64,000 nt of DNA from Chiloscyllium plagiosum (taxonomy: Eukaryota), in NCBI RefSeq assembly GCF_004010195.1, contig NC_057718.1, positions 73,841,931 to 73,905,930 on the forward strand, written 5' to 3'. The notes beneath the pieces were generated by a model. The model searched no databases. It had not been told where the DNA came from and worked only from the letters and a program-made list of their open reading frames with translations. Made by a program: the position numbers and the translations under genes. Below, piece after piece: positions 4,030 through 63,778 of this stretch (its first letter is position 1; the number at the start of each line of letters is the position of its first letter).

Positions 4030-4292
4030 TGTGTAAAGTGTCAATGTTGGACTGCGGTGGACAAGGTCAGAAGCTACGTGACACAAGGTTATAGTCCAAC
4101 AGGTTTATTTGAAATCATCGGCTTTCAAAGCATTGCTGCTTCACCAGGTGAAGGGAAGAGAAGCACACAGACACAGAATTTATAAATTTGGTACCTGTAT
4201 ACTTATCTTCATTTCACCTGATGAAGGAGCAGCGCTCCAAAAGCTTGGTGATTTAAAATAAACCTGGTGAAATGTGACTTCTGTCTTTGTCC
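4030..4292. mobile_element. Short inverted PLE-terminal element (family B) with hammerhead-like motif
   Basis: Imperfect inverted arms; CTGATGA-A-GGAGC..GCTCC-aAAA-GCTT at 4218-4246; flanked by direct repeat attgcccta (4020-4028, 4293-4301). Confidence 0.65.
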
Positions 4293-4919
4293 ATTGCCCT
4301 AGATAATGGTCTCTATGAGTGATGGCATGGCTTAAGTGGGGTCAAGGAACCTTAAGATCACTCCAGGTGCCCCTTACACAGAGACAGAGATTCCTCCGGT
4401 GTTGGCAATTATTGGATGTTCATTTCTGTGAATGAGGAATGTGCACTCGGTGTCCATGGATCATGCCCTGAGATGGTGGTGCATGGTGACCAACATGGAG
4501 GATCCTCACAGTCTGCTGAAGTTGCAAGCTACCCACTCTGATGTCCATGTTGAGAATTCTTAGCTTCTAGTTTGCTCACAGTGGATGGTACAGTACGAAG
4601 CTGAATTTTAGTGAATTCTGCAGTTTATAATTTTGTCAACACATGATTAATCCTGCTTAATAGGGAAAAATTACATCTTTTGAAGTGTAAAGGAAAGAAG
4701 GCCCACCTGGCATGGATTAAGGTACTGGAAACAGAAGCTCTGTCAACCCTGTAAAGTCCTCCTTATTAACATCTGGGGGCTAGTGTCAAAATTGGGAGAG
4801 TGGTATCTCAGATTAGTCAAGCAATAGCCTGATATAATGATACTCATGGAATCATACCACATACATAGCAATACAGACAATGACATCATTATCCCACATG
4901 TTCTACCCCTGGCAGGGCA

Positions 4920-5534: not shown

Positions 5535-5660
5535 AGATAGACCCAACAGAGATGGTGGCATAGTGGTTAGCAGTCAGGAGGGAGTTGCCCTTGGCTTTCT
5601 TAGCATTAATGGATGCTGCCTGAAGAACACAGCAATTCAGGCAGCATCCGAGGACAGGCA

Positions 5661-5700
5661 AAATCGACGTTTCGGGCAAAAGCCCTTCATCAGGAATAAA
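5661..5700 (-). ncRNA. Minimal type-I hammerhead ribozyme-like motif (PLE terminus)
   Basis: Minus strand reads auuc-CUGAUGA-A-GGGC(UUUU)GCCC-GAAA-CGUC-gauu: full core, 4-bp stem II, palindromic ACGU stem III, GUC triplet. Confidence 0.6.
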
Positions 5701-5892
5701 GGCAGAGAGCCTGAAGCGTGGAGAGATAAGCTAGAGGAGTTCCACATCCATCAAAGCTTTACCTGCACATCCACTAATATCATCTATTGTATCCGTTGCT
5801 CCCGATGCGGTCTCCTCTACATTGGGGAGACTGGGCGCCTCCTAGCAGAGCGCTTTAGGGAACATCTCCGAGACACCCGCACCAATCAACCA

Positions 5893-6134
5893 NNNNNNNN
5901 NNNNNNNNNNNNNNNNNNNNNNNNNNNNNNNNNNNNNNNNNNNNNNNNNNNNNNNNNNNNNNNNNNNNNNNNNNNNNNNNNNNNNNNNNNNNNNNNNNNN
6001 NNNNNNNNNNNNNNNNNNNNNNNNNNNNNNNNNNNNNNNNNNNNNNNNNNNNNNNNNNNNNNNNNNNNNNNNNNNNNNNNNNNNNNNNNNNNNNNNNNNN
6101 NNNNNNNNNNNNNNNNNNNNNNNNNNNNNNNNNN
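5893..6134. other. Assembly gap (242 N)
   Basis: Run of N. Confidence 1.
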
Positions 6135-6870
6135 CCTGGCCAGGTAGTCACGGAGGGAACGGTCTTTGCGGAAGGCGGAGAGGGGTGGGGAGGGAAATAT
6201 ATCCCTGGTGGTGGGGTCTGTTTGGAGGTGGCGGAAATGTCGGCGGATGATTTGGTTAATGCGAAGGTTGGTTTCCACCCTATCAGAGTATTGAAAATGT
6301 TTTATGTTATAACTGTTATTCTGATTTATTTTAAGGAGGAAAACGGATAAGAAAGGTAAAACAGTAATCGTCATAGTCTCAAAGCAGACAATGGAGCATC
6401 ATTTAACATGGGTATTCCAGAAATCTGCATAATTATGTGTTCATCAGGTCTCCGTAGGTGGAATTAGCTATGAAATTCCACTAGAAATACCTGGGCATTC
6501 CTGGCAAAATCTAGCCTATACATTAGCTGAGACTTCTGAACCAATGTAGTGTCTCACGTGCGAAAGATTTTGAAGATAGGACTTTTTTTTACCCGCCACT
6601 AATGGTCAACTGGGAGGTAAGAAGCCTGTGGAATGGATGGGTTTGGGTGTTGTCTTCCTGCTGCTATTTAACTAGAAGTGGTGAAGGTGGAGAATGGCTC
6701 TTCCATACAGAAGCCAATTGATCCACTAAAGTGACCAATTAAGGCACACTTCCTCCTGTCGCTGGTATTTTATCAGTGACAGGTGGGCTGTCTGCCATTT
6801 GGGGAGACTGCCTGATGAATCCGGGCAGCCTTCTGTAAGGTGACCAGGAGGACACTCCTATTCAGATAGC

Positions 6871-6986
6871 CATGATGTGGAGGAGCCAGTGTTGGATTGG
6901 GGTGAACAAAGTTAAAAATCACATATCAGGTTATAATCCAAACAGGTGCTGTTGGACTATAACCTGGTGTTACCTGATTTTTAACA
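6871..6986. mobile_element. Short inverted PLE-terminal element (family B)
   Basis: atgatgtggagg...gttaaaaatca...caggttata / tataacctg...tgatttttaac inverted arms; 13-bp direct repeat ctattcagatagc (6858-6870, 6987-6999). Confidence 0.7.
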
Positions 6987-9559
6987 CTATTCAGATAGCA
7001 TGTGGCCCAGAAAGAGGTCCATTAGTGGCAATGATCACCTCTGCAGTAGCTGCAGGTTGCACTTACCTGGTTAGGAGGACAACATTATCTTCTTCCAGAG
7101 ACAACCCCAACAGTTGCCGGGAACCAGTTGAGTATGTGTATTTTTGCATGGCCTTTTGACAGGTGCAATCTGTTCTTTTTCTACCTTGCAAAGTAAGGGC
7201 AGTTACTATTGAAACAGTCCAGTTTAGGCAGCACTCATACTGCTTTATAAAACCACACTAGGGATACTTAAAGAGTCATTTTTGTGGCTCTCATCCCCTG
7301 TTGTGTTGTACTGAAATGTAAACATGGTGCTAGATATGGATTGGATTTTTGCTCATGGATACCCAGGTTCCAAATAATTTGGTTTGGATCATTGACAGCA
7401 GAATAGACAAAGGGAAAGGCATCACACTGAGGTGATAGGCTGTGTTTTTAAACACCACTCTCTTGGGAGGTTTAACACAAAGATTGAGAGTGTCTTGAAT
7501 GAGGTCATTCTTTCCTGAGGTTTGTTATTGTTCCTGATCAAACCAGACATTTTTTTTGTCACCTGAAATGGTCCAAGTCCCCAGTGTAAAGCCTGTCTCC
7601 TCTTATGTTCTGATTAGTAAACACTCCAAACCTCTGAACCATAACATCCCACTGGGGATTGTGGTTTTTGCAGATTTCAGACGGGTTCCAGTTTTATATT
7701 CTCAATTACATTTGCAGGTCTCATTCAAACAGCCGCTTTTCCAATATAACTAGTCAGATTTCCAATATAACTAGCCTTGCTCAAAAGCAATTAAATTAGA
7801 ATAAAAATTATAATTAGTCTCTAAGATCGTTCTGGTGTACAAGGGATAGATAATCATAGAGAGGAAGACATGGAAGAGGAAGGCTGGCATGTGAGAAAAT
7901 AACTGATATGGGGATGAGGGCTGGTAAAGAAGACAACGTGTATCTGTGAAATAGAGGATTGTATAGAAAGAATTAGAGGTGCAGAGGTAAAGAAGAGCTC
8001 TTGTATACAGGGGTGGGGGTGGGGGAAACAAACATAACTGAAAGGCAACTGGAGAAGCAGACTGGAAAGGGAGACAAAAATTTTACTTAAATCCAGGAAC
8101 TACTTATATTTGACTTCACAAAAAAGAGGTGAAATGGCAAGGAAAATCTTTAACTCTTTTTTTCCTGCTTTTTTGTATTGAGGATTGGCTTGCCAAAGTG
8201 TCCAATTTCATACTTTGAATAAAAACCTCCTTAAATGGATTTCCAACCATGTCAAGTACATTAGCTGTTGTGGAACTTAATTGGAAATACTCCTAATGTT
8301 TTATTGGGTGAGCTTTTCACTTCTGTATTAAATCCCTTGTAAGTGGGTGGTCAAAGATGAGAAACTGGTAAGTGGAACTCCATCCCGCTACATAGGCTCC
8401 CATTAGCCATTATTATAACAGCTGGATTAAGACAGCTGAATATCCCACACAGGGCATTCTTTTAGCATTTTAAAATCAGGGCCCACAGTTCAGTTGTGAC
8501 CCAATTTAAGTTAAGCAATTGCCACACTGGTCTCCCATGGTTCATTCCTTGTAGGTACATCACATCATCATCTCATAAATCAAGAGAACAGGCTTAAAAA
8601 ACAAACAATTTGGTATAAAAATAACTTTATTTTTGCCAAACAAACTAATAAATAAATTGACAGTTGGTTTATAAACCTTATTAAAGCTCATAAAGCTTAT
8701 TAAACCTCTTAAAAAGTTAAGTCTGTTTACAAAATCTGTACATTTAAAACATTTTGCTAATAAACGTTTGCAACGTTAGAAGTTTGCAAGTATTTAGACA
8801 GGCTTAACGAGTGGAGTGGAATATCTGATGAAAAGTCATCCACTTGAATCTCTTTGCAAATGCTGCATGACCAGCTGAATATTTCCTGCATTTTCTCATT
8901 TTATTTCCATGTCCTCAGTGCCAGTAACAGACAGCAGCCTAGGCAGGCAAGGAGTACTCACAAGAGATTAAATTCTCTCCACTGCCAGGTTATTTATCTC
9001 TCTGTCCAGAACACTAGGGCTACAAACATTCTCCAGCTTCTCGTGGAAGTTAAACTGCGGTAAATTGGCCAGAGTTTTGACGTCTGTACTCAGAGTCAAG
9101 AAAATGAACGCTGTCATCTCCATAGATACAGTATTCCTTGTGATCCAAGAGCCTTGGTAATTTGTTAGTGTATGCCCTATACAAGATGGACTACAGCAAT
9201 CACTATAGTTCATTTGAGAGCATCTTCCAAATTGGCGACATTTACCAAGGGAAATAGATGCATAGAAACATGTAATTTCCTCTCCACTGGACGTACATAA
9301 GTCCTGGAATTATATCGCTGTTCCTTAAATGTTGCTAGGCCAAAATTGTAGAACTCCCTCCTAATAGAACTGTGGGATGTATCTACATCACATGGACTGC
9401 AGAAATTCAAAATGACATCTCACCACTACCTGCCCAAGATCGTGGGGTCAGGTGACAAATGCTGGTCTATCCAGTGAAACTGACGTCCCATGAATGAATA
9501 AAAGAGTTACAAAAGTGAAAATGCCCAAGTGAAAAATGCAATTTGATCAGTTAGTCTTA

Positions 9560-9732: not shown

Positions 9733-10445
9733 TGCAGGTGTCCCAGAAATGTTCTCTGAAACGATCTGCAAGTTGGCAGTTTTTCTTTCCCGATCTGGAG
9801 ACCATATCGGGTGCACGGACACAGTAGATGACGTGAGGAAGTACAGTTGCATTTCTGTCAGATGTGGAAGGATCCTTTGAGGCCTTGAATGGAGGTGAGG
9901 GGGAAGTTGTGGTCGCAGGTTTTGCATTTCTTGCGATGGCAGAGGAAGGTGCTGGGCTGGTGGTGGGCGTGGATCTGACATGGAGGTCACGGAGGAAATG
10001 GTCTCTCCGAAACATAGATCAGAGTGAGGAGGGAAATATATCCTTAGTGGTGGGGTCTGTTTGTGGGTGACAGAAGTGGCAGAGGATGATGTGATGGTTG
10101 TTTCAGAGAACATCTCTGGGGGACACGCAATCAATGTGGATTTCACCAGTTTCCTCATTTCCCCTCCCCGCACCTTACCCCAGTCCCAAGTCTCCAACTC
10201 GGCACTGCCATCTTGACCTGTCCATCTTCCTTCCCACCTATCCGGTCCATGCTCCTCTCTGAGCTATCACTTTCACCCTCACCTTCATCTACTTATCACA
10301 TTCCCAGCTGCCTTTCCCCCCAGCCCTGAACTCCCTCCCATTTATCTCTCAGCCCCCTGGCCCGGCTTATGCCTAAAATGTCGATTCTCCTGCGCCTTGG
10401 ATGCTGCCTGACCTTCTGTGCTTTTCCAGTACCACACTCCCAAAC
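9733..10445. mobile_element. Penelope-like element fragment (GIY-YIG region on - strand, terminal part on + strand)
   Basis: - strand FRRDHFLRD...VIYCVR...LADRFREH; + strand family-A terminus (gtcgattctcctg...ggatgctgcctgacc...cttttccag) at 10380-10440. Confidence 0.75.
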
Positions 10446-14558: not shown

Positions 14559-15226
14559 GATGGATTTGGACAGATTTGAACAGATTTAGCATATGAAAGG
14601 TGCCAGCAGATTGAAACAGGTTTGGGGACTAGTGACCTACATCTTTAAATAAAACTTGAGTGAGGGGTGGAATATCTGTTTAATTTCGGTTGCTTGTTGT
14701 TGGTTAAATTAAAAGTGGGGAAATAGCTCTTAACAGTGCTAAGAGTGGTTCGAGGGGTTGAAGATGCTTGCCAAATTTACCAAGAAAGTTTAGAAAGATA
14801 AAAAAAAGTGACACTTATTGTATTAGCATACAGGTTTAAATTGGGTTTAACTAGGGATAGAAAGTAAGTTGAAATTGTAATGGAGTTAGCCAAGTATTTA
14901 GGTATATCAGAGAAACAGTCAAGTGCAATGGAGTTAGAAAATTTCAAATTGCAAATGAGGCAATTGGAATTAGGAAGTGGATTTAAAAGACTGGAGTTAG
15001 AAGATAGAGCAAATGAAAGCAAATCACCTTAGCAGAAGTAAAAGAAAGAATGTTTGAGTTGGAAAAGATGAAATTGGAATTTGAAGCAAAAGGTTTAAAA
15101 TGATAGAAGTAAAAATATGATGTGGAGGTGCCGGTGTTGGACTGGGATGGACAACGTAAAAGTACAGGATAGCAGTGATGGTGAGAAACTCATTGTAGCC
15201 AAAGGCCTAGTAGGATATACACTAGG

Positions 15227-15675
15227 TGAGAGTGTGATGCTGGAAAAGCACAGCCAGTCAGGCAGCATCCGAGGAGCAGGGGAATCGATGTTTCAGGCAT
15301 AAGCACTTCATCAGGAATGAGACTTGTGGGTTGAGGCAGAAAGATGAGTGGGAGGGGTATTGGGTTGCGGGGAGGTAGCTGGGAAAGTGATAGGTGGATG
15401 AAGGTGAGGGAGAAGGTGATAGGTCAGAGGGGGCAGTGATGGATGAGACTGGAGGGCAGTGCCAAGTCGGATGCTTGGGACTGGGATAATATGGAGGGAG
15501 GGGAAGTGAAGAAATTCACATTTATCCTGTGTAGTTTCAGGGTCCCAAGGCGAAACAGCTGTTGGGTGGTAACAGTTTGGCGGTGGAGGAGGCACAGGAC
15601 CTGCATGTCCTTGACGGAGTGGGAGGGGAAATTGAAGTGCAACCACACAGGATAAATGTGGATTTCAACAGCTTC
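15227..15675 (-). mobile_element. PLE 3'-terminal fragment (family A) inserted in Gmr1 gag
   Basis: gtgtgatgctggaaaagcacagc...ggcagcatcc terminus; degenerate hammerhead on - strand at ~15282-15316. Confidence 0.7.
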
Positions 15676-16629
15676 CAAATATGTTGAAACATTACCAAAA
15701 TCAAAGAAAAGGATGTAGAAGCCTTTTTTGTTTCTTTTGAGAAATTGGCTAACCAGATGAACTGGCCAGAGACTACGTGGGTTCTGTTAATTCAGAACAA
15801 ATTGGTAGGTAGGGTTAATGAGGTGTTTGCAGCGCTGTCAAAGGAGGTGACAGGGGAATATGAAGAAGTAAGAAAGGCAGTTTTGAGTGCTTACAAATTG
15901 GCACAAGAAGCATATCGACAACAGTTCAGAAATGTAAGGAAGGAACTAGGTCAGGCTTATATTGAGTTTGAAAGAATTAAACAGAGCAACTTCGACAAAT
16001 AAATCAGAGCATTAAAAATAGAAAAGACATACCAGGATCTGAGAGATATTATTCAGCTGGTAGAGTTTTAAAAACTCCCTTCCAGAAGTGATAAGAACTC
16101 ATGTTGAGGAACAGAAAGTTAAAACCGTGAGAAGAGCTGTAAAGATGGCGGATGAATATGCATTAGTACATAAATCGACACCTAACTTCTGATAGCAATT
16201 ACATTCCTTGAGGGACAGACATTGGGAAAGGGGGAGATCCTTCAGTGAAAACAAAAGGTAGACCACACTGGTAACAATTTAACACACATGAAAAAAAGTG
16301 TTTTCAATGCAATAAGGTGGGACACACAAAGTCACAGTGCTGATGGTTTAAGAAAAGCACTGGGAAAGAGATTTGGTAAAAGAGGCGAAACCTGTGAGAT
16401 TAGTTAAGGCAGTGACGGAAGTTCTGAGAGAAGTTGAGGAGCTGTAGGAGAGTGAACTGCATAGCGAGGAGCTGGATAGTAAGGTAGCACCTGATCTTTT
16501 GGGACTCACCTGTGGGTAAGATTGACTCAGGTACAACATAGGGAGTAGGTAGGAAGAAAGGTGCGACAGGTCAAGGGGCGGTGCCAAGTTGGAGGGTTGG
16601 ATCTGGGATGAGGTGGAGAGAGGGGAGAT

Positions 16630-17268
16630 TTGGACAAACAAGCAGACAAAACATATCCAGAAACCCTAGCCACTCTCCCCTACATCAAAGACACCTTGGA
16701 AATGACTGCCAGACTATTCAGACCCCTTGGCATCATGGTAGCCCACAAACCCACCAACACACTAAAACAGCAGCTAATGAATTTGAAAGACCCTATACAG
16801 ACAGCAAGCAAAACTAATGTCATTTACAAAATACCATGCAAGAACTGTAACAAACACTACATTGGACAAACAGGCAGAAAACTAGCCACCAGGATACATG
16901 AACTCCAACTAGCCACAAAAGGACATGATCCTCTCTCACTCATATCCTTACATACAGATAAGGAAGGACACCACTTTGACTGGTACAATACATCCATCTT
17001 AGAACAAATCAAACAGAGACATGCATGAGAATTCCTAGAAGCATGGCATTCTAACCGGAACTCTATCAACAAGTTAGACTCCATCTACCACCCCCTGAGA
17101 AAAAGAACAGGAAATGATGTCACCAACCCAAAGAAACCCAAACATATAAATAGAAAGCAGGAATCATGTACACTGCTTCGCCTGAGGTTCACTGAAGATG
17201 TTACCTAGTAGGGTGACGAAACGCCTGAAAATGAACCTCCCAGCTCAGCGAGCAAATCTACATGCATA
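16630..17268 (+). mobile_element. Penelope-like element 3' end (second PLE family, C-type terminus), GIY-YIG endonuclease
   Basis: ORF 16630-17028 TLPYIK...KPTNTL...NVIYKIPCKNCNKHYIGQTGRKLATRIHE; hammerhead-like motif at 17185-17240. Confidence 0.85.
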
Positions 17269-17717
17269 GTACGAGGTTGATATAGGGAATGCTGTTCCAA
17301 TAAAACAACACCCCTACAGGCTTAATCCTCTCAATGCAGTGCTGGTTTAGAAAAAGTGCAAGTAATGCTCCAAGAAGACATCATAGAGATGAGTCAAATT
17401 GCCTGGAGATCGCAAATCATTTTGGTTCATAAACCTGATGGTACTGAAGAATTCTGCGTGGATTATTGGAAGGTCAACACTGTGACAAAGAGCTGACTCA
17501 TACCCAATTCTGGAGGATTGTGTGGAAAAACTGCGAAAAGCCACTTACTTTACAAAGCTTGATTTACTATTATCAGAGAAAGCAAAAGACATTTTTGCCT
17601 TTGTAATCCCAAATGGGCTATATCAATTTAAAGTAATGCCCTTTGGAATGAAAAATGCACCAGTCACTTTCCAAAGGCTTATGAACAGAACTCTTGCAGG
17701 ATTGACTGTGCAGTCTG

Positions 17718-17917
17718 GGAGAAAGTGAGGACTGCAGATGCTGGAGATCAGAGCTGAAAAATGTGTTGCTGGAAAAGCGCAGCAGGTCAGGCAGCATCCA
17801 AGGAGCAGGAGAATCGATGTTTCGGGCATAAGCCCTTCTTCAGGAAATGTCGATTCTCCTGCTTCTTGGATGCTGCCTGACCTGCTGCGCTTTTCCAGCA
17901 ACACATTTTTCAGCTCT
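17718..17917. mobile_element. Short palindromic PLE-terminal element (family A) inserted in Gmr1 RT
   Basis: Long near-perfect inverted arms; hammerhead core on - strand 17811-17844; duplicated tgtgcagtctg (17707-17717, 17921-17931). Confidence 0.8.
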
Positions 17918-18907
17918 AATTGTGCAGTCTGCAGAGATGACTTAGTGATCTTTAGCCATCCGTAGAAAGATCATGTGGTGCATTTGGTGAACTCTTTGAG
18001 AGACTACAAAAGGCAAAATTAGTCATAAACTTGGCAAATACAGAGTTTGCAAAGGTGAAAATGACATTCTTAGAACACAACACTGGGCACAGATTACACT
18101 GAGGAATGTGAAGACAAAGGCCATCAAAGAATTTCCAAGACTATTCATGAAGAAGAAAGTGTTATGATTTTTAGGACCGAGTGGATTCAACAGGAAATTT
18201 GTACCAAACGTTAGTAGCGTAGTGGCACCATTAACGGATTTGTTACAAAAGTACACAAACGTTTGGTGGATAGAACCATGCCAGTAGGCATTCGAGAATT
18301 TAAAAGCACTGTTAACCACCAGACCAGTTTTAGCCACGTCCAATTTTCTAAAACCTTTTAAAGTTGCTATTAATGCAAGCGATGTTGGTGTTGGATCTCT
18401 GTTATTACAGGAGGATGAAGGTGGAATTGAAAGGCTAATTGGTTATTTTTCAAATTAAACTCAATATCCACCAGAAAAGACATTCAACCATCGAAAAAGA
18501 GTTATTGAGTTTGACACTTGCCTGACAACATTTTAATGTTTACTTTGCAAACAATGTATCAGAGATGGTTGTGTATATCGATCGCAATCCTTTGACATTC
18601 TTGGAAAGATTTAAGGACAAAAACACGAGATTATTTCATTGGAATCTCATGTTTCAAGCATATAATTTACAGATTGTACATGTTGCCGGTCACACAAATA
18701 TTATCGCGGATGCTTTATTGCAGGTTTGAAAGAAAAATGTTTGTATAAGATAGAAACGGTGGTGTTCAATGTTATATATAAATGGAATTTGAATAAAATG
18801 TATAAGCGTAGATTAATGATCTATGGACTAGTAAAATGATAGAGTTAATGATTTTAAAGAGAAAAAATAAAGCCATCTTTTTATAATGATCATTCATTGG
18901 GGGGAGG

Positions 18908-20198: not shown

Positions 20199-20310
20199 AG
20201 GAGAAAGTGAGGACTGCAGATATTGGAGATCAGAGTCGAGAGTGTGGTGCTGGAAAAGCACAGAGGATGCTGCCTGACCTGCTGTGCTTTTCCAGCACCA
20301 CACTCTCGAT
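20199..20310. mobile_element. Short palindromic PLE-terminal element (family A, centre deleted)
   Basis: Inverted arms tcgagagtgtggtgctggaaaagcacag / ctgtgcttttccagcaccacactctcga; 13-bp direct repeat aatg(c/a)ttttaact (20186-20198, 20311-20323). Confidence 0.75.
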
Positions 20311-26255: not shown

Positions 26256-26379
26256 AGGCAAAAGTGAGGACTGCGGATGCTGGAAACCAGAGTTCTATTC
26301 CTGATGAAGGGCTTTTGCCCGAAATGTCGATTTTCCTGCTTCTCGTCTACTGCCTGACCTATGGTTTTCCAGCACCATT
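26256..26379. mobile_element. Short PLE-terminal element (family A) in SYNCRIP intron 2, hammerhead-like motif in sense orientation
   Basis: CTGATGA-A-GGGC(TTTT)GCCC-GAAA-TGTC at 26301-26328; 15-bp direct repeat ctgctc(a/t)attctcat (26241-26255, 26380-26394). Confidence 0.75.
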
Positions 26380-43885: not shown

Positions 43886-44543
43886 GTAAAAATTCTGCAG
43901 AAACATTCTGCTTTCAGATTTCAGAGTGAGATGTAACATTGCATATGTAATTTCAAGTAAATTACAAGCTTTGAGTCTGCTGTGATCTGTGATGAAAAAT
44001 TCTTTTTCATCATCTTTCGACTGATTAAGACATTGATGGATAATTAATTTGCTGAGATCATGTATAGTATGTTTTTATAGGTGGCTTTTGAGGGTATGCG
44101 AGCTGTGAAGATGGATAGGCAATCAATTGCATCCAGTTTACCAATGCACCTATTTAATTTTTTTATTCCCTTGGTACTTAGTAATTTATTTTTGAAGTGG
44201 TTACTCTTTGCACAAGTTTGTGAACAATTTGGTTAAATAAATCACATTTAAACACTGCTTGTGGATTTAGTTTTGTAGGATATTTAAAAAATCTGAATGG
44301 CATGTACTTTTGACATTAAAACCTATTCAACATCAGCTTTAGTTGATGGATGTTTCGTCATATGACATTTGGCTTGCCTGTGAATACATTTGCTGGAATT
44401 CAGTATAACCCAATTGTACAGTTTTGTATGTGGCATTCAAACTGCTGCAACCAAAGATATCCTGTAATGGTGACATTTTCTAATTGATGTACAATTAGAC
44501 TGTTTTACAGTGCAATCATTTACCTGTTTCTTCTCCATGACAG

Positions 44544-56440: not shown

Positions 56441-58029
56441 CTAGAATCTAAGTATATTGCAGGAAAATTTGGGTCTGCAGTGTGCTGCTAGTAAGTATGA
56501 TGGCGGCAGGTCAAATTGAGGCATTCAAGAGTATTGATTGTAGTTATCTAAATAACTGCACGGACAAAAGGCAGGGGAATAACACTAAGTTATGGGTGGG
56601 GGGGGTGGGCGTGTTGAATTTAATATTTTTTTTAAAAAAAGCTAGCTACAGGAAACTTGGTCATTTTTGCAGACAAAGTAGGTGTTCTGCAAATCGGTCA
56701 CCCAGTGTAGAAGAGATTAACGAATGTGGTAGAAATTGCTGTTTTGATCTGGCTGGGGCCTTGGATAGTGAAAGGAGAGGAAGTGAATGGGCAAAAGCCA
56801 GAAATGTTGTTTTTCAGTAACTGAAGGATTACATGCAAAATGTTGACTTCACAACCTGATGCTGCCTGGCTTGCTTTACTCTTCCAGCTGGTCTACCTTG
56901 GATTCCAGCATCTCCAGATTTTTGTCTCTAACCAATTTAGTATTTACCAAAACTCGAGTGTCATAAGTGTATTGCTGAATTTTCAGAGAAATTATGCATC
57001 CATGTTTCCCTCCTATCTGCTGATTATAAATGCAAACTGTCTCTTTGGACTAAACAAAAGAAAACTAAGGTGTGGTGGGTAAATTGGCAGTGATAAACTG
57101 GACAATATCAGTAATAGGCATGTCAACAGACAGGCAATGGTTAATGAACAAATACATGCCTTTCAAGAGTTAAATGTTCCTTTCAGGTTATAGGATACAA
57201 GAGGAGAGAGGTCTGATTTGGCCAACAGAAGAAATTAAGGATAGAATTAGATCCAAAGAGGAGTCCTATAAAGCTACTTGAGTCCTGAAGAATTTCACTA
57301 GACCGGGAGAGATGGTGAGAATCGCTAGGGAAAAGGCTACTTGACTTCTTCCCTACCTGTTGCAGATATATTACTAGTTCCATGATCAATCTGGTGAATG
57401 GTTATCAACTAAAAATGTAAATTCTTTTTTCCACACTTAATGCCTAACCTGCCTCTCTTGACAATGAATGGCATCATAGTTGAAGCCTCCACTGTCAACT
57501 GCTTGGGGTAATCATGGATCAGAAAAGGAACTGACTAGCTTTGTAAATACGCTGGTAGTGGACAGATTGCAAGTTTTACAACAAATTTCCCTACTTGTCT
57601 ATAAGCATTTAGTTAATACTGTGTAAGTGTTTTTCCTTTTGTAGCACTGCAACTAAGTTAAAGCAGAAGTATGGGTTATTTCACACTTAGATGTGGGGGG
57701 GGGGATATCTTGCAACACGAGCACACTTCCAAATACAGGGTATATAAGGCTTTATAGAATCAATGGAGAAAGCAATTCGGAGAGTGATGGTGTAGTGGTA
57801 TTATCACTGAACTAGTAAGCTAGTTTTGAATTCTACCACAGCACAGATTGGAATTTGAATTCAATAAAAATGTGAAATTAAGAAATTCCAATAATGACTA
57901 CATAAAAACCATTAATGTCCTTTATGTGAGGAAAATTACTATCCTTGTGCAGTTGATCTTGTGTGAATCCAGACCTCCAGCAATGCAGTTGACTCATTTC
58001 TGTCTGAATCACCTAGCAAGCCACTTAAG

Positions 58030-59560
58030 GTCTTCCCAATAAGTATACAACTTGGCTCTTGTACCCTGCAAAACATGTCCTCACATCTGAGGGTGAGTGC
58101 TATCGTTGGGCTTGGTCAAGCAATAGTCTTGTATGATTACACTCTCAGAACCAATGTCTAACTGGTAGGCCAGGACCAGACCCAGATGCAGCAGAGGTGG
58201 TAGAACAGTGATATGCATTTGGAGGGGAGTTGCCTTAGGAAGCTTCAACATTGACTCTGACGCCACGAAGTCTCATGGGATCAGGTCAAACCCCTGCAAC
58301 AAAACCTCTGGCTAATAAATCAGTACTCCTCCAGGTTGAACTCTTAGAGAAAGTTCTGAGGGGTGAATTGGGGGATAACTTCAGCATCCATTCCCAATAC
58401 TGGTTCTGCAGTAGCATTATTGATTGAATTAGTTGGGTGCATAAGGGCACAGCTGTTGGGCTGTTTTTTCTCTGATTCTCATACTTGACTTTATCCTTAC
58501 TACTTGGCCTGTCAAAGATGCATCACTCATGCAGTAGGAATGATCATCTCCCAGTTCGTTTGGATATGAAGTCCAGTTATATTGTAAATGCCCTTTGTCA
58601 TATGGTGCGGCATAGTCTCTACTAAACGGGACAGACTTCTAACATCTGTTGGTGCAATTCTGGGTGTTCATGAGGCACTGTAGGCTTTCAGCAGTAGCAG
58701 CATTGTACAAAACAATTTGTATCCTTGTGGTCTGGCATATTCCCCATATTATAATTATTCCACCAAGCCAGGAGAATCAACTATGATACATTGAAGATTG
58801 CAAGAAGAGTGGCAGGAAGGTGCACCAGATGTCAACTTGGTGAGGTCTTAAAACTGAAATATATGTGTTCCAAAAGGCATGAGATGCAAGTGATAATTGG
58901 ACAAAGTGATTCGACAGCCAGTGGATCAAATCAAAGCTTTGTAGTCTTGCTACATGTAGTCATGAATAGCAGTGGACAATTTGTGGAGGAGTAAGCTCCA
59001 CAAATATCCCCCCCCTCAATAATGTGGGAGCCCAGCAAGAGAGAAAGCTGAAGCATTTGTAACAAACCTCAGCCAGACGTGCTGTGTTAAATCTGTCTTT
59101 GTTTCTTCCAGTCATCCCCAGCATCATAGATGTCAGTCTTTTCACTCCATGTAATATCAAGAAGTAGCTAGAGACATTGGACACTGCAAACAGTATAGGT
59201 CATGGCAACGTTCTGGCAATTGTACTGAAAACATGTACTCTGGAAATTGCCACATCCCTAGATAAGCAGTTCCCATTTAGCTGCAACACTATATAGTTGC
59301 CCTATTCATAAAAAGCAGGACAGATTCAACTCGGCCAGTTAGGCCCCATCATTCTAAACTCAGTAATCAGTAAATGAAGCTTACTTGTGGAAGTGCTGCT
59401 GTTGGACCGGGATGGACAAAGTTAAAAATTACACAACATCAGTCTATTGTCCAACGAGTTTATTTACTTTCAAATAAATCTGTTGGACCATAACATGGTG
59501 TCCTGTGATTTTGAAGTTTTCATCAACAGTACTATGAATTAGCACTCACTTAGCAATAAC
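58030..59560 (+). mobile_element. Highly decayed L2/CR1-group LINE with a small family-B PLE-terminal insertion (~59385-59520)
   Basis: Similarity to 4750-4915 block (gtcaagcaatag..., cagacccag..cagaggtgg); degenerate RT-like PIHKKQDRFNSAS. Confidence 0.45.
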
Positions 59561-59939: not shown

Positions 59940-60490
59940 TTGAGGCTGAGGGTGGGCGGATCATTATGGGGAGAACAATGTTAAAAATCACACAACACCA
60001 GATTATAGTCAAGATTGGAGTTGTGCTGGAAATGCACAGCAGATCAGGCAGCATCCGAGGAGTAGGAAAATTGACGTTTTGGCAAAAGCCCTTTGATTTT
60101 CCAGCTCCTCAGATGCTGCCTGATCTGCTATGGTTTTCCAGCACTGCTCTAATCTTGACTCTAATCTCCAGCATCTGCAGTACCCACCTAACCCCAGGTT
60201 ATAGTCCAACAGGTTTATTTGGAAGTACTAGCTTTTGAAGCACCGCTCCTTCTGCAGGTGATTGTGGAGTAGGACCATAAGACAGAACCTATAACAAAAG
60301 ATTACAGTGTCATGCAACTGAACTGATATACAATAGAGATTTGTTAAATATATCACGTCAGTTGCATGATACTGTAATCTTTTGCTATAAATTCTGTGTC
60401 TTATAGTCCTACTCCACAACCACCTGAAGAAGGAGCTGCGCTCCGAAAGGTATTGCTTCTGAATAAACCTGTTGGACGATAACCTGGTGT
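59940..60490. mobile_element. Long palindromic PLE-terminal element (family B) with nested family-A element (60011-60193)
   Basis: Arms 60194-60320 and 60358-60490 are imperfect reverse complements; hammerhead-like cores on both arms; nested element flanked by ccag(a/g)ttatagtc. Confidence 0.75.
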
Positions 60491-60491
60491 T

Positions 60492-60635
60492 CAAAGTTTG
60501 TGAGAAGATTTGTAGCTCGGGTGCGCGTTGTTGTGGTTCTGTTCGCCGAGCTGGGAATTTGTGTTGCAGACGTTTTGTCCCCTGTCTACGTGACATCCTC
60601 AGTACTTGGGAGCCCTCCTGTGAAGTGCTTCACAG
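60492..60635 (-). mobile_element. PLE terminus (family C)
   Basis: Matches 35851-35990; - strand CTGAGGA-T-GTCAC...GGGGAC-aAAA-CGTC. Confidence 0.75.
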
Positions 60636-60639
60636 GAGG

Positions 60640-61303
60640 AGGGGCCTGGGGCCGATTATTATCGAAACTGAAGGGGGCCTGAGGCGAATGACATCCAATC
60701 ATTACGCGAAGGAGGCGGTGCTTGAGGTTGTGGGCGGGGTCTGTCGTCACGGTGATCCAGAGGCTGAGGGCGGGACGTTTCGTCACGGGAAGGATGTGAT
60801 GCTAAGACTGAGGGCGGGACGTTTCGTCTCGGGAAGGACGTGGCGCAGGGGCTGAGGGCGGAGTCTGTCGTCACGGGAAGGGGGTGGTCCAGAGGCTGAG
60901 GGCGCGGCCTGTCTCACGAGAAGGAGGTGGTGCAGAGGCTGAGGGCGGGACCAATCGTCACGGGAAGGAGCCGGTGATCAGGCTGAGGGCGGGGTCGTCA
61001 CGGGATGGAGGCGGTGCTTGAGGCTGAGGGCGGGGTCGTCACGGGATGGAGGCGGTGCTTGAGGCTGAGGGCGGGGTCTTTCGTCACGGGAGAAGAAGCA
61101 GGTCGTGCGGCTGTGGGCGGGGTCGAGAATTTGGAGCGTGGAGGTGATTGATGGGTCCGCGACAGCGAGGCTGAGACAGAAACAGGCTTGTGTGTAGGCC
61201 TGACGAGGGAAGGAGGCGTTGCTTCTATTCCTGTGCCGTAAACGGTGAGAGAGAAAGAGCAATGTCGCGGCGCTGGTAAGCCCAGGCCTTGGCGGAAGTC
61301 AAT
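60640..61303 (+). promoter_or_regulatory. SNX14: SNX14 CpG-island promoter / 5' UTR
   Basis: High CpG; repeated GGGCGG and CGTCA; ETS-like ggcggaagt (61291-61299) just before the ATG. Confidence 0.7.
60724..61125 (+). repeat. GC-rich minisatellite (~10 x 36-46 bp) in SNX14 promoter
   Basis: Unit gaggctgagggcggggtcgtcacgggatggaggcggtgctt; near-identical copies at 60979 and 61020. Confidence 0.9.
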
Positions 61304-61705: not shown

Positions 61706-63775
61706 TAGGGGAAAGTGAGGACTGCAGATGCTGGAGATTAGAGTCTAGAGTGTGGTGCTGGAAAAGCACATCTGGTCAGGCAGCATCTGAGGAGCAGGAG
61801 AGTGGCCATTTCGCCCATAAGCCCTTCATCAAGAAGGAGGGAGTGGCCCGAGGGAGGGGGGGGGGAGGTGGTTGGGCTGGGGGAGTGAAGGTAGCTGGGA
61901 CTGCAATAGGTAGATGAAGATGTGGGTGAAAAGTGATACAAACGAGGATGGAGCAGATAGGTGGGAAGGCAGATGGACATCTCTTTGACTATGACTATAA
62001 CAGTAAGAGGACGGTTTCAAGTTGGAAGGTTGGATCAGGGTTAAGGTGGGGGGAGGGGAAACTGGTGAAATCCACATTCATCCTGTGTGGATGGAGGGTC
62101 CCAGGTGGAAGATGAGGCATTTTTCCTTGAGGTGTCGGATGGCTAGAGTTTGGAGAAGATGTGCTGGAAGGCATTGCTGACCATGAGGGAGGGGAAATTG
62201 TGGTCGTTGAAGAAGGAGGTCAACTGGAATGTTCTTTGGTGGAATTGGTCCTCCTGAGAGCAGATGTGGCAGAGGTGGAGAAATTGGAAATAAGGGATAG
62301 CATTTTGACAGGAGGCAGGGTGGGAGGAGGTGTAGTCCAAGTAACTGTGGGAGTCGGTGGGTTTGTAGTAGATGTTTGTGTTAAGTCGGTTGCTGGAAAT
62401 GGAGACAGAGAGGTCCAGGAAAGGGAGGGAAGTGTCAGAGATGGCTCAGGTGAACTTGAGGTTTGGGTAGAAGGTGTTTGTGAAGTTGAACTGTTCAACC
62501 ACGTGGGAGCATGAGGTGGCACCGATAGTCACCGATGTAGTGGATGAAAAGGTGGGGAATGGTGCCTGCGTAGCTGCGGACGATGGACTGTTCCATGTAC
62601 CTGACGAAGCGGCAGACATAGCTGGGGCCCATGCGGGTGCCCATGGCTACCTCTTTGCCTGAAGGAAGTGGGAGGATTTGAATGAGAAATTGTTAGGGGT
62701 GAGGACCACTTCAGCCAATCAAATGAGTGTGTCAGTGGAAGGGTACTGGTTGGGTTTGTGAGAGAGGAAGAAACGGAAGGCTTGGAGGCCTTTGTCACGG
62801 TGGATGGATGTGTACAGGGACTGGATGTCCATGGTGAAGATGAGGTTTTGGGGGCTGGGGAAAGTCATGGAGGAGGTGGAGGGTGTGGGTGGTGTCCCAA
62901 ATGTATCTGGGGAGTTCCTGGACCAAAGAGAACAGGACAGTGTCGATGTATGCAGAAGTAAGTTGGGTGGGGCAGGAGATGGCTGAGACGATGGATCGAC
63001 TGAAGCAGAGCTGAAAATGTGTAGCTGGAAAAGTGCAGCAGGTCAGGTAGCATCCAAGGAGCAGGAGAATCGACATTTCGGGCATGAGCCCTTCTTCAGG
63101 GCTCGTGCCCGAAATGTCGATTCTCCTGCTCCTTGGATGCTGCCTGACCTGTGCTTTTCCAGCAACACATTTTCAGCTCTGATCTCCAGCATCTGCAGTC
63201 CTCACTTTCTCCTAGATCGACTGAAGCAATCAGGTTTGTGAATGTTGGTAGGAGGTAGAACTGGGTGGTGCGGGGTTCCTGGATTATGAGGTTGGAGGCT
63301 GTTCTGGGAGATCCCTTGAGGTGACGAAGTTGTGGATGGTCTGAGAAATTATGGTTTGGTGATGGGAGGTGAGGGGACAGTAGGAAGTTGGTGCCTAGCT
63401 TCAGTGGTGTTGAGGTTGGTGCGCCAAACCACCACTGCACCCCCCCCCCCGGTCTGCTGAATTGATGGAGTTTGGGGTTGGAGCGGAGGGCTGTGTGTTG
63501 CCATGGTGAGAGGTTGGAGTGGGTGAGAGAAGTTGAGGTGGTCAATGTCATGGTGGTAGTTGGAAATGAAGAGATCGAGGGTGGGTAACAGACCAACATG
63601 GGGTGTCCAGGTAGATGCGGTGTGTTGGAGGCGGAAGAGGGAGTCCTTGGAGGGTGGGTGGGAGTCTTGATGGAAAAAGTCTGCATGGAGGTGGAGGCGA
63701 CGGAAGAAAAGTTCAGTGTCGAACGTGTGTTGAATTCATTGATCCAGGATCTGCTGGGAAGTGTGGCAGCATGGT
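61706..63775 (-). mobile_element. Penelope-like element (family A) with degenerate RT and terminal repeat, in SNX14 intron 1
   Basis: - strand TMDIQSLYTSI, AMGTRMGPSY, degenerate YxDD (YIGD), DYTSSHPASCQNAIP..QFL; terminus ggggaaagtgaggactgcagatgctggag at 61708. Confidence 0.85.
63008..63214. mobile_element. Short palindromic PLE-terminal element (family A) inserted into PLE RT
   Basis: Near-perfect inverted arms around fused hammerhead halves; perfect 14-bp direct repeat gatcgactgaagca (62994-63007, 63215-63228). Confidence 0.85.
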
Positions 63776-63778
63776 TAA

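Follow-up and report, generated by a model that had tools for sequence, protein, structure and literature searches.

Five short insertions in the 64,000-nt window (the whole stretch of Chiloscyllium plagiosum DNA that was analyzed) are, judging from their sequences, very probably independent and extremely truncated insertions of a Penelope-like element (PLE), and given this identity twin priming is their likely origin. The whole explanation, namely independent truncated PLE insertions made by twin priming, is the best available and on balance a probable one.

All five insertions described in the initial annotation, each lying between direct repeats, were recovered at positions 17718, 20199, 26256, 60011 and 63008 (the copies are named below by these starts), and their sizes range from 112 to 207 bp. 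The copy 63008..63214 (207 bp) lies within the RT gene of a longer PLE, its host, and is bounded by an exact 14-bp target-site duplication (TSD), the left copy of which (62994..63007) is identical to the right one (63215..63228). The others are 17718..17920 (minus strand, 203 bp) with an exact TSD of 11 bp (17707-17717/17921-17931); 20199..20310 (minus strand, 112 bp) with a TSD of 13 bp and one mismatch (20186-20198/20311-20323); 26256..26379 (minus strand, 124 bp) with a TSD of 15 bp and one mismatch (26241-26255/26380-26394); and 60011..60189 (plus strand, 179 bp), where the repeat is 17 bp long with two mismatches (59994-60010/60190-60206) or 13 bp with a stricter edge. The repeat lengths claimed earlier (11, 13, 15, 13 and 14 bp) thus hold, copy 60011 admitting either value, and the TSD length is variable among the five copies (11, 13, 15, 13-17 and 14 bp). 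The TSD scores are 10 to 14, and a score of 10 was reached by only two of 300 random position pairs given equal slack.

The target is single-copy at both sites for which uninterrupted paralogues are available for comparison (63008 and 60011). When the insert and one copy of the repeat are removed from 63008, 26 nt remain, compared with 27 in all five intact relatives that span the site, out of 33 relative proteins examined. The target of copy 60011 is the end of a second PLE-like family, and it is present once in a paralogous copy of this family (6949-6986). A BLAST search of the window with the 63008 copy retrieved the other four copies and additional pieces at 5630, 10364, 15224, 56858 and 61704.

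As aligned to the long element, each short copy is the PLE 3' end with its tail, joined to an inverted piece that lacks the last 30-48 nt. In coordinates counted backward from the 3' terminus of the long element (61706, minus strand), the tail-bearing arm starts at -130 in 17718, -65 in 20199 and -42 in 26256, at about -99 in 60011 (different alignments yield -94 and -110) and at about -120 in 63008 (-132 with another alignment scoring). The tail-less arm reaches inward to -107, -82, -130, -121 and about -126 to -128 in 17718, 20199, 26256, 60011 and 63008, respectively. In each of the five copies its outer end is set back from the tail end by about 30-48 nt, lying for example at -32 in 17718, -39 in 20199 and -48 in 26256. 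Hence the description of one end as constant and the other as varying was correct for the fixed tail end, whereas free variation of the other end was not seen. Toward the interior the tail-less arm is clearly the longer one in 20199, 26256 and 60011 and marginally so, depending on the scoring, in 63008, while the reverse is true for 17718; the inner ends therefore vary independently.

In the 63008 copy the tail-less inverted arm occupies 63008..63100 (minus strand), with its outer end set 35 nt in from the tail end, and the tail-bearing direct arm occupies 63098..63214 (plus strand) and corresponds to the last ~120 nt of the PLE, including a tail of 35 nt (63180..63214, plus strand) that is present at one end only. 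This terminus is common to many copies, as contigs from public sequencing runs have loose ends at the equivalent place, 17718. Three letters at the inversion centre (63098..63100) fit both arms; here the antisense match to an independent copy reaches 63100, and the start of the sense arm was placed by eye. Three letters likewise fit both arms at the centre of 17718 (17844-17846), the centre of 20199 has one extra letter and no letters matching both arms, and matching letters at the centres of 26256 and 60011 were judged by eye only. A script looking for letters shared by target and element at the tail-less end found them in one of the five copies (63008, two letters), with two copies being misplaced by the script, and this result was set aside.

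The inversion centres are different in all five copies, none of the 10 copy pairs sharing one, and the copies represent at least three sequence variants, both arms of a copy carrying the same variant letters. Strong hairpins are formed by four of the five copies (folding z from -9.7 to -21.6), to which the earlier label of self-complementary applies. It does not apply to 26256, a plain inversion with non-overlapping arms that folds no better than shuffled sequences (z -1.3).

The same terminus, with its tail, is found on the element that hosts the 63008 copy, as had been noted in the initial annotation. This host PLE (61707..63777, minus strand) is 5'-truncated and contains a decayed RT with stops and frameshifts, most of the linker and the endonuclease part being deleted; Pfam returned nothing for three open stretches of the decayed RT. 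An inverted terminal arm was not found on it, and its flanking repeat of 12 bp with two mismatches has a score of 6, a level attained by 73 of 300 random pairs and thus no better than chance. GC-rich short tandem-like repeats are located upstream of the long element (60695-61125). A search with the host RT gave 33 protein hits, matching at up to 76%, of which the named ones come from elasmobranchs (Chiloscyllium, Rhincodon, Hypanus, Mobula, Amblyraja); relatives of this RT possess a C-terminal GIY-YIG domain with two cysteines inside. The full-length relatives P0027 and P0030 have RVT_1 and GIY-YIG matches, the latter above the Pfam cut-off in one of the two, and this order of RT followed by GIY-YIG in full-length relatives points to an endonuclease-bearing PLE as the parent. 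Eight of 11 endonuclease-bearing relatives contain a CX2-5CxxC linker, a part that the long copy in the window has lost. The parent is probably a PLE of the Neptune type, an assignment made from the linker and from host ranges; from host ranges we presume Neptune rather than Nematis. The linker marks both of these clades in the available text of PMC8557442, and the relatives of the host RT share it, together with GIY-YIG, with them. Neither metagenome nor viral contigs contained a match to a 24-letter motif of the terminus.

Longer insertions in the window have the same layout as the short ones. In 15224..15676 a tail-less antisense arm extends into endonuclease-coding sequence, the centre is near 15640 and the sense arm is cut short, and in the inverted remnant 9733..10439 antisense linker and endonuclease sequence continues to ~10096 and is followed by a sense arm ending without a tail. 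Since the centres of these two insertions lie in endonuclease-coding sequence, the short copies are the lower end of a range of sizes. Endonuclease-coding pieces are present in the 15224, 9733 and 5612 copies. The last of these (5612-6272) is well preserved, its proteins matching at up to 96%; its hammerhead core (5693, minus strand) is intact, it has coding pieces on opposite strands, and it encloses the only assembly gap of the window (5893-6134), a gap possibly due to the inverted repeats. The terminus is also present as an older and more divergent copy (56790-56935), with endonuclease-like minus-strand pieces at its left and no TSD that could be found. The second family has a different terminus and similar inverted stumps (59979-60491, 4058-4293, 6903-6993 and 59418-59519), one with a hammerhead-like core at 60424, and a repeat directly to the right of the second-family element (~60500-60631) resembles a related terminus. 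A search of the window revealed no TSD above chance for 15224, the sense part of 9733-10439, 56800 and the four second-family hairpins.

As stated in the initial annotation, three of the five short copies retain the core boxes of the hammerhead ribozyme, at 17843 (minus strand), 26301 (plus strand) and 63099 (minus strand); a motif scan found six cores in the window and zero to one in each of 20 shuffles. The motif is situated on the tail-bearing arm in 17718 and on the inverted arm in 26256 and 63008, 20199 has none, and in 60011 the core is cut off. In 63008 it is a minimal type I motif (63068..63099, minus strand) with the core boxes and a stem II of 4 bp, and should be taken as a motif only; the surrounding hairpin would sequester it. 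When hammerhead regions were folded as monomers, stem II was formed in three of four and no significant hammerhead fold was obtained. Another hammerhead-like core, the third, with a stem II of 7 bp, was seen at 17192 beside endonuclease-like coding sequence (16801-16971). The minimal type I hammerhead was defined for PLEs in PMC4209133, and the cores of the short copies fit this definition, as described in the available sections, in their core boxes, the extra letter before stem II and the lack of a real stem III. No Rfam family, hammerheads included, matched at gathering scores; sub-threshold matches at E up to 10 were to miRNA-like and snoRNA families, those to miRNA families involving four of the five short copies. 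A reading of the short copies as microRNA genes was rejected. Elsewhere in the window, 43984-44059 resembles a C/D-box snoRNA (snoMe28S-Am982, 45.3 bits, cut-off 49; SNORD96, 30.1 bits, cut-off 43), also below the gathering score.

Beyond the window, four of 24 listed public runs were compared with the reference interval 17600-17843 (one arm and its flank) at 80% likeness. Two DNA runs from two organisms yielded 120,766 and 114,563 matching contigs; with more than 100,000 contigs recruited per DNA run the PLE family is very abundant, the summed contig depth not being taken as copy number. Loose ends of contigs are concentrated at the tail end (17718), with 2071 and 1195 records and a flank agreement of 0.34-0.36, and the flanks beyond them are unrelated. 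Loose ends at 17758/17762 follow the element up to a point about 30-35 nt before the tail end, beyond which they are heterogeneous; we read them as a second terminus about 30-40 nt in. Joints that jump back to the tail end by 33 or 34 nt were present in both DNA runs (10+9 and 6+2 contigs), and in two organisms there are contigs in which the 33-34 nt tail by itself is repeated in tandem (reference 17718-17751). Such tandem tails suggest that the cDNA often stalls at the tail boundary and then restarts. Restarts at the inner site are suggested by joints that run from positions 17797, 17798 and 17806 back to about 17752-17758 and whose orientation was deduced from the letters between.

Among the 15 listed of 117 joints in the four runs, eight connect opposite strands, all at different places, with at most 8 contigs and a depth of at most 195 (single-locus contigs have depths of 5-16), and no centre is dominant. 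These data have to be read knowing that the counters of run X1 overflowed, that the listed opposite-strand joints all touch the end of the stretch and that contigs may break at hairpin centres. One joint of a tail-only arm to an inverted arm, as in 26256 (17753 to 17838/17843), was found in all four runs at a depth of at most 155, in 3+6, 3+5 and 2+4 contigs and in five raw RNA reads with five different starts. In total, 3,740 of 12,955,460 RNA reads matched; there was no pile-up of starts or ends and 89% continued into unlike sequence, the source being a poly(A) single-cell library that is weak for short or circular RNA.

Together, the different centres, the three or more variants, the longer insertions of the same layout and the lack of a dominant joint among those listed bear out the part of the initial annotation that proposed extremely truncated PLE insertions. 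Its companion proposal, fold-back priming, finds no support in the simple version. As a general rule, simple fold-back of the tail-bearing cDNA predicts a tail-less arm contained within the tail-bearing one, which is true for 17718 only. In 20199, 26256 and 60011, and marginally in 63008, the tail-less arm reaches deeper into the element, so it cannot have been copied from the tail-bearing cDNA. The geometry of the arms and the restart joints favour twin priming over simple fold-back.

In the twin-priming scheme the GIY-YIG endonuclease of the element would nick both target strands 11-17 bp apart. One nick would prime cDNA synthesis at the tail end of the RNA. The other would use a second start site lying one tail-length further in, for which a second RNA or another terminal repeat is the probable template. 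Both cDNAs would stop early, at independent points, after which their 3' ends would be joined, sometimes via about three matching letters, and the gaps filled. Overlapping cDNAs would give a hairpin and non-overlapping ones a plain inversion as in 26256, the hammerhead being a passenger of the terminal repeat. This mechanism is the likeliest one and covers all five copies with no extra step; what we observe is the geometry, from which we infer the steps of this and of the fold-back model. Several considerations temper its firmness: only five short copies were dissected, the variant letters shared between arms fit one template molecule as well as two alike ones, twin priming and fold-back alike predict matching letters at the centre, and a fold-back of the longer arm with subsequent trimming can be drawn for any lopsided hairpin.

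In a more elaborate fold-back, the 3' end of an antisense strand, either cDNA or antisense RNA, loops around to serve as its own primer, copying proceeds as far as the tail, and one arm of the hairpin is trimmed before integration. This is a serious competitor, although we consider it less likely. It accounts for the matching letters at two centres, the variant letters shared by the arms and the greater length of the tail-less arm in three to four of the five copies. Moreover, self-priming on an antisense template was proposed for PLE inverted repeats in the accessible part of PMC3846280, and the trimming could perhaps be done by the endonuclease, by which the tail was suggested to arise through resolution in that of PMC8557442. 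However, the template arm would have to lose 35-48 nt at precisely the end that target priming would fix to the chromosome, with the opposite outcome in 17718, and 26256 would need a loop of ~85 nt with all of the pairing sequence trimmed away. The direct restarts at the tail end and at the inner site are also left unexplained, whereas two start sites have been shown in vitro according to the main text of PMC11167929.

The second alternative of the initial annotation was a non-autonomous, ribozyme-bearing mini-retroelement; such an element or a retrozyme, in which a short hairpin or a tail-plus-hammerhead unit is transcribed and re-inserted by the PLE protein, is improbable. Non-autonomous PLE derivatives do exist, as reported in portions of PMC8557442 and PMC7761336, and the recurrence of the 26256-type joint in all four runs is the sole residue favouring a replicating unit. 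This joint has two plainer explanations, since it coincides with an apparent stall point of the cDNA and with the position at which the match of other variants to the reference ends; its depth is at most 155. A replicating ribozyme-bearing unit is further contradicted by the absence of a hammerhead from two of the five copies, by the absence of tandem same-strand hammerheads from all of them and by the lack of a common unit length, as no copy pair shares a centre and the sizes continue into coding insertions; nor do the 3,740 RNA reads from the poly(A) single-cell library, weak as it is for short or circular RNA, have start or end pile-ups. We likewise rejected an identification with the metazoan non-LTR retrozymes, which consist of tandem 150-300 bp monomers bounded by same-strand hammerheads in the available description (PMC7761336); the short copies have no such monomers and at most one core each, two of the five having none. 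A DNA-transposon MITE that resembles a PLE end by chance would be short, non-coding, flanked by a TSD and, as in four of the five copies, hairpin-forming. We rejected this explanation, which is hardly credible: the TSD length is not fixed but ranges between 11 and 17 bp, only one end carries the tail, so that the ends are not inverted repeats, 26256 lacks an inverted repeat altogether, and the copies consist of 3'-terminal sequence from an RT-coding element.

The layout is already known for PLEs, and the insertions belong to an ordinary class that offers a modestly useful mechanistic clue. Complex PLE insertions with an inverted 5'-truncated copy, a tail of 30-40 bp at one end and a TSD are described in parts of PMC8557442, PMC3846280 and PMC8969392, Pen2a having a tail of 31 bp and a TSD of 9 bp (PMC3846280), and opposite-strand hammerheads 100-700 bp apart have been tied to truncated PLEs in PMC4209133. 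The present copies resemble these published insertions in the inverted truncated arm, the tail at one end, the variable TSD, the strong 5' truncation and partial tandems, and differ from them in being reduced to the terminal repeat only. Compared with the rotifer examples as far as the consulted text covers them, the TSD is longer (11-17 bp vs 8-10 bp) and the copy number far higher. How PLE inverted repeats are formed is stated as an open question in sections of PMC8557442 and PMC3846280. Penelope is listed among whale shark repeats in the available text of PMC8455134; in agreement with the initial annotation, which knew of no description in sharks, we found in the openly readable literature neither a paper on a shark PLE hairpin family nor one applying twin priming to PLEs.

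In L1 insertions made by twin priming the arms are usually non-overlapping. Here, unlike in L1, the position of the second priming point hardly varies and the cDNAs usually overlap, which would require two RNA copies or repeats. In L1 twin priming (Ostertag and Kazazian 2001, as summarized in the accessible part of PMC2246262) both sides of the target break prime cDNA, giving an inversion within one TSD, and 26256 has this form. The purified PLE protein of Anolis, a predicted dimer, nicks and extends both strands and starts at two sites bounding the tail, and hammerhead cleavage is not needed in vitro (main text of PMC11167929). The element concerned, PAc, a Poseidon element of Anolis carolinensis, is like the present family in having two termini one tail apart and a hammerhead apparently unneeded for insertion; it belongs to another clade, and the main text of PMC11167929 explains the tail without tracing the inverted arm to the two starts.

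Short PLE hairpins can pass for MITEs or microRNA precursors, and their correct naming therefore matters for annotation. As both arms, the centre and the TSD of such stumps are contained in a single read and the family is abundant, they are good material for discriminating between twin priming and fold-back. It is possible, though we put this forward tentatively, that PLEs in general integrate by a built-in double target-primed reaction, with a dimer, two nicks, two fixed starts and end-to-end joining. If this is true, one double-primed mechanism would account for the tail and the inverted terminal repeats as well as for hairpin stumps and plain inversions, and the genome would contain a very large natural record for testing double-primed PLE integration.
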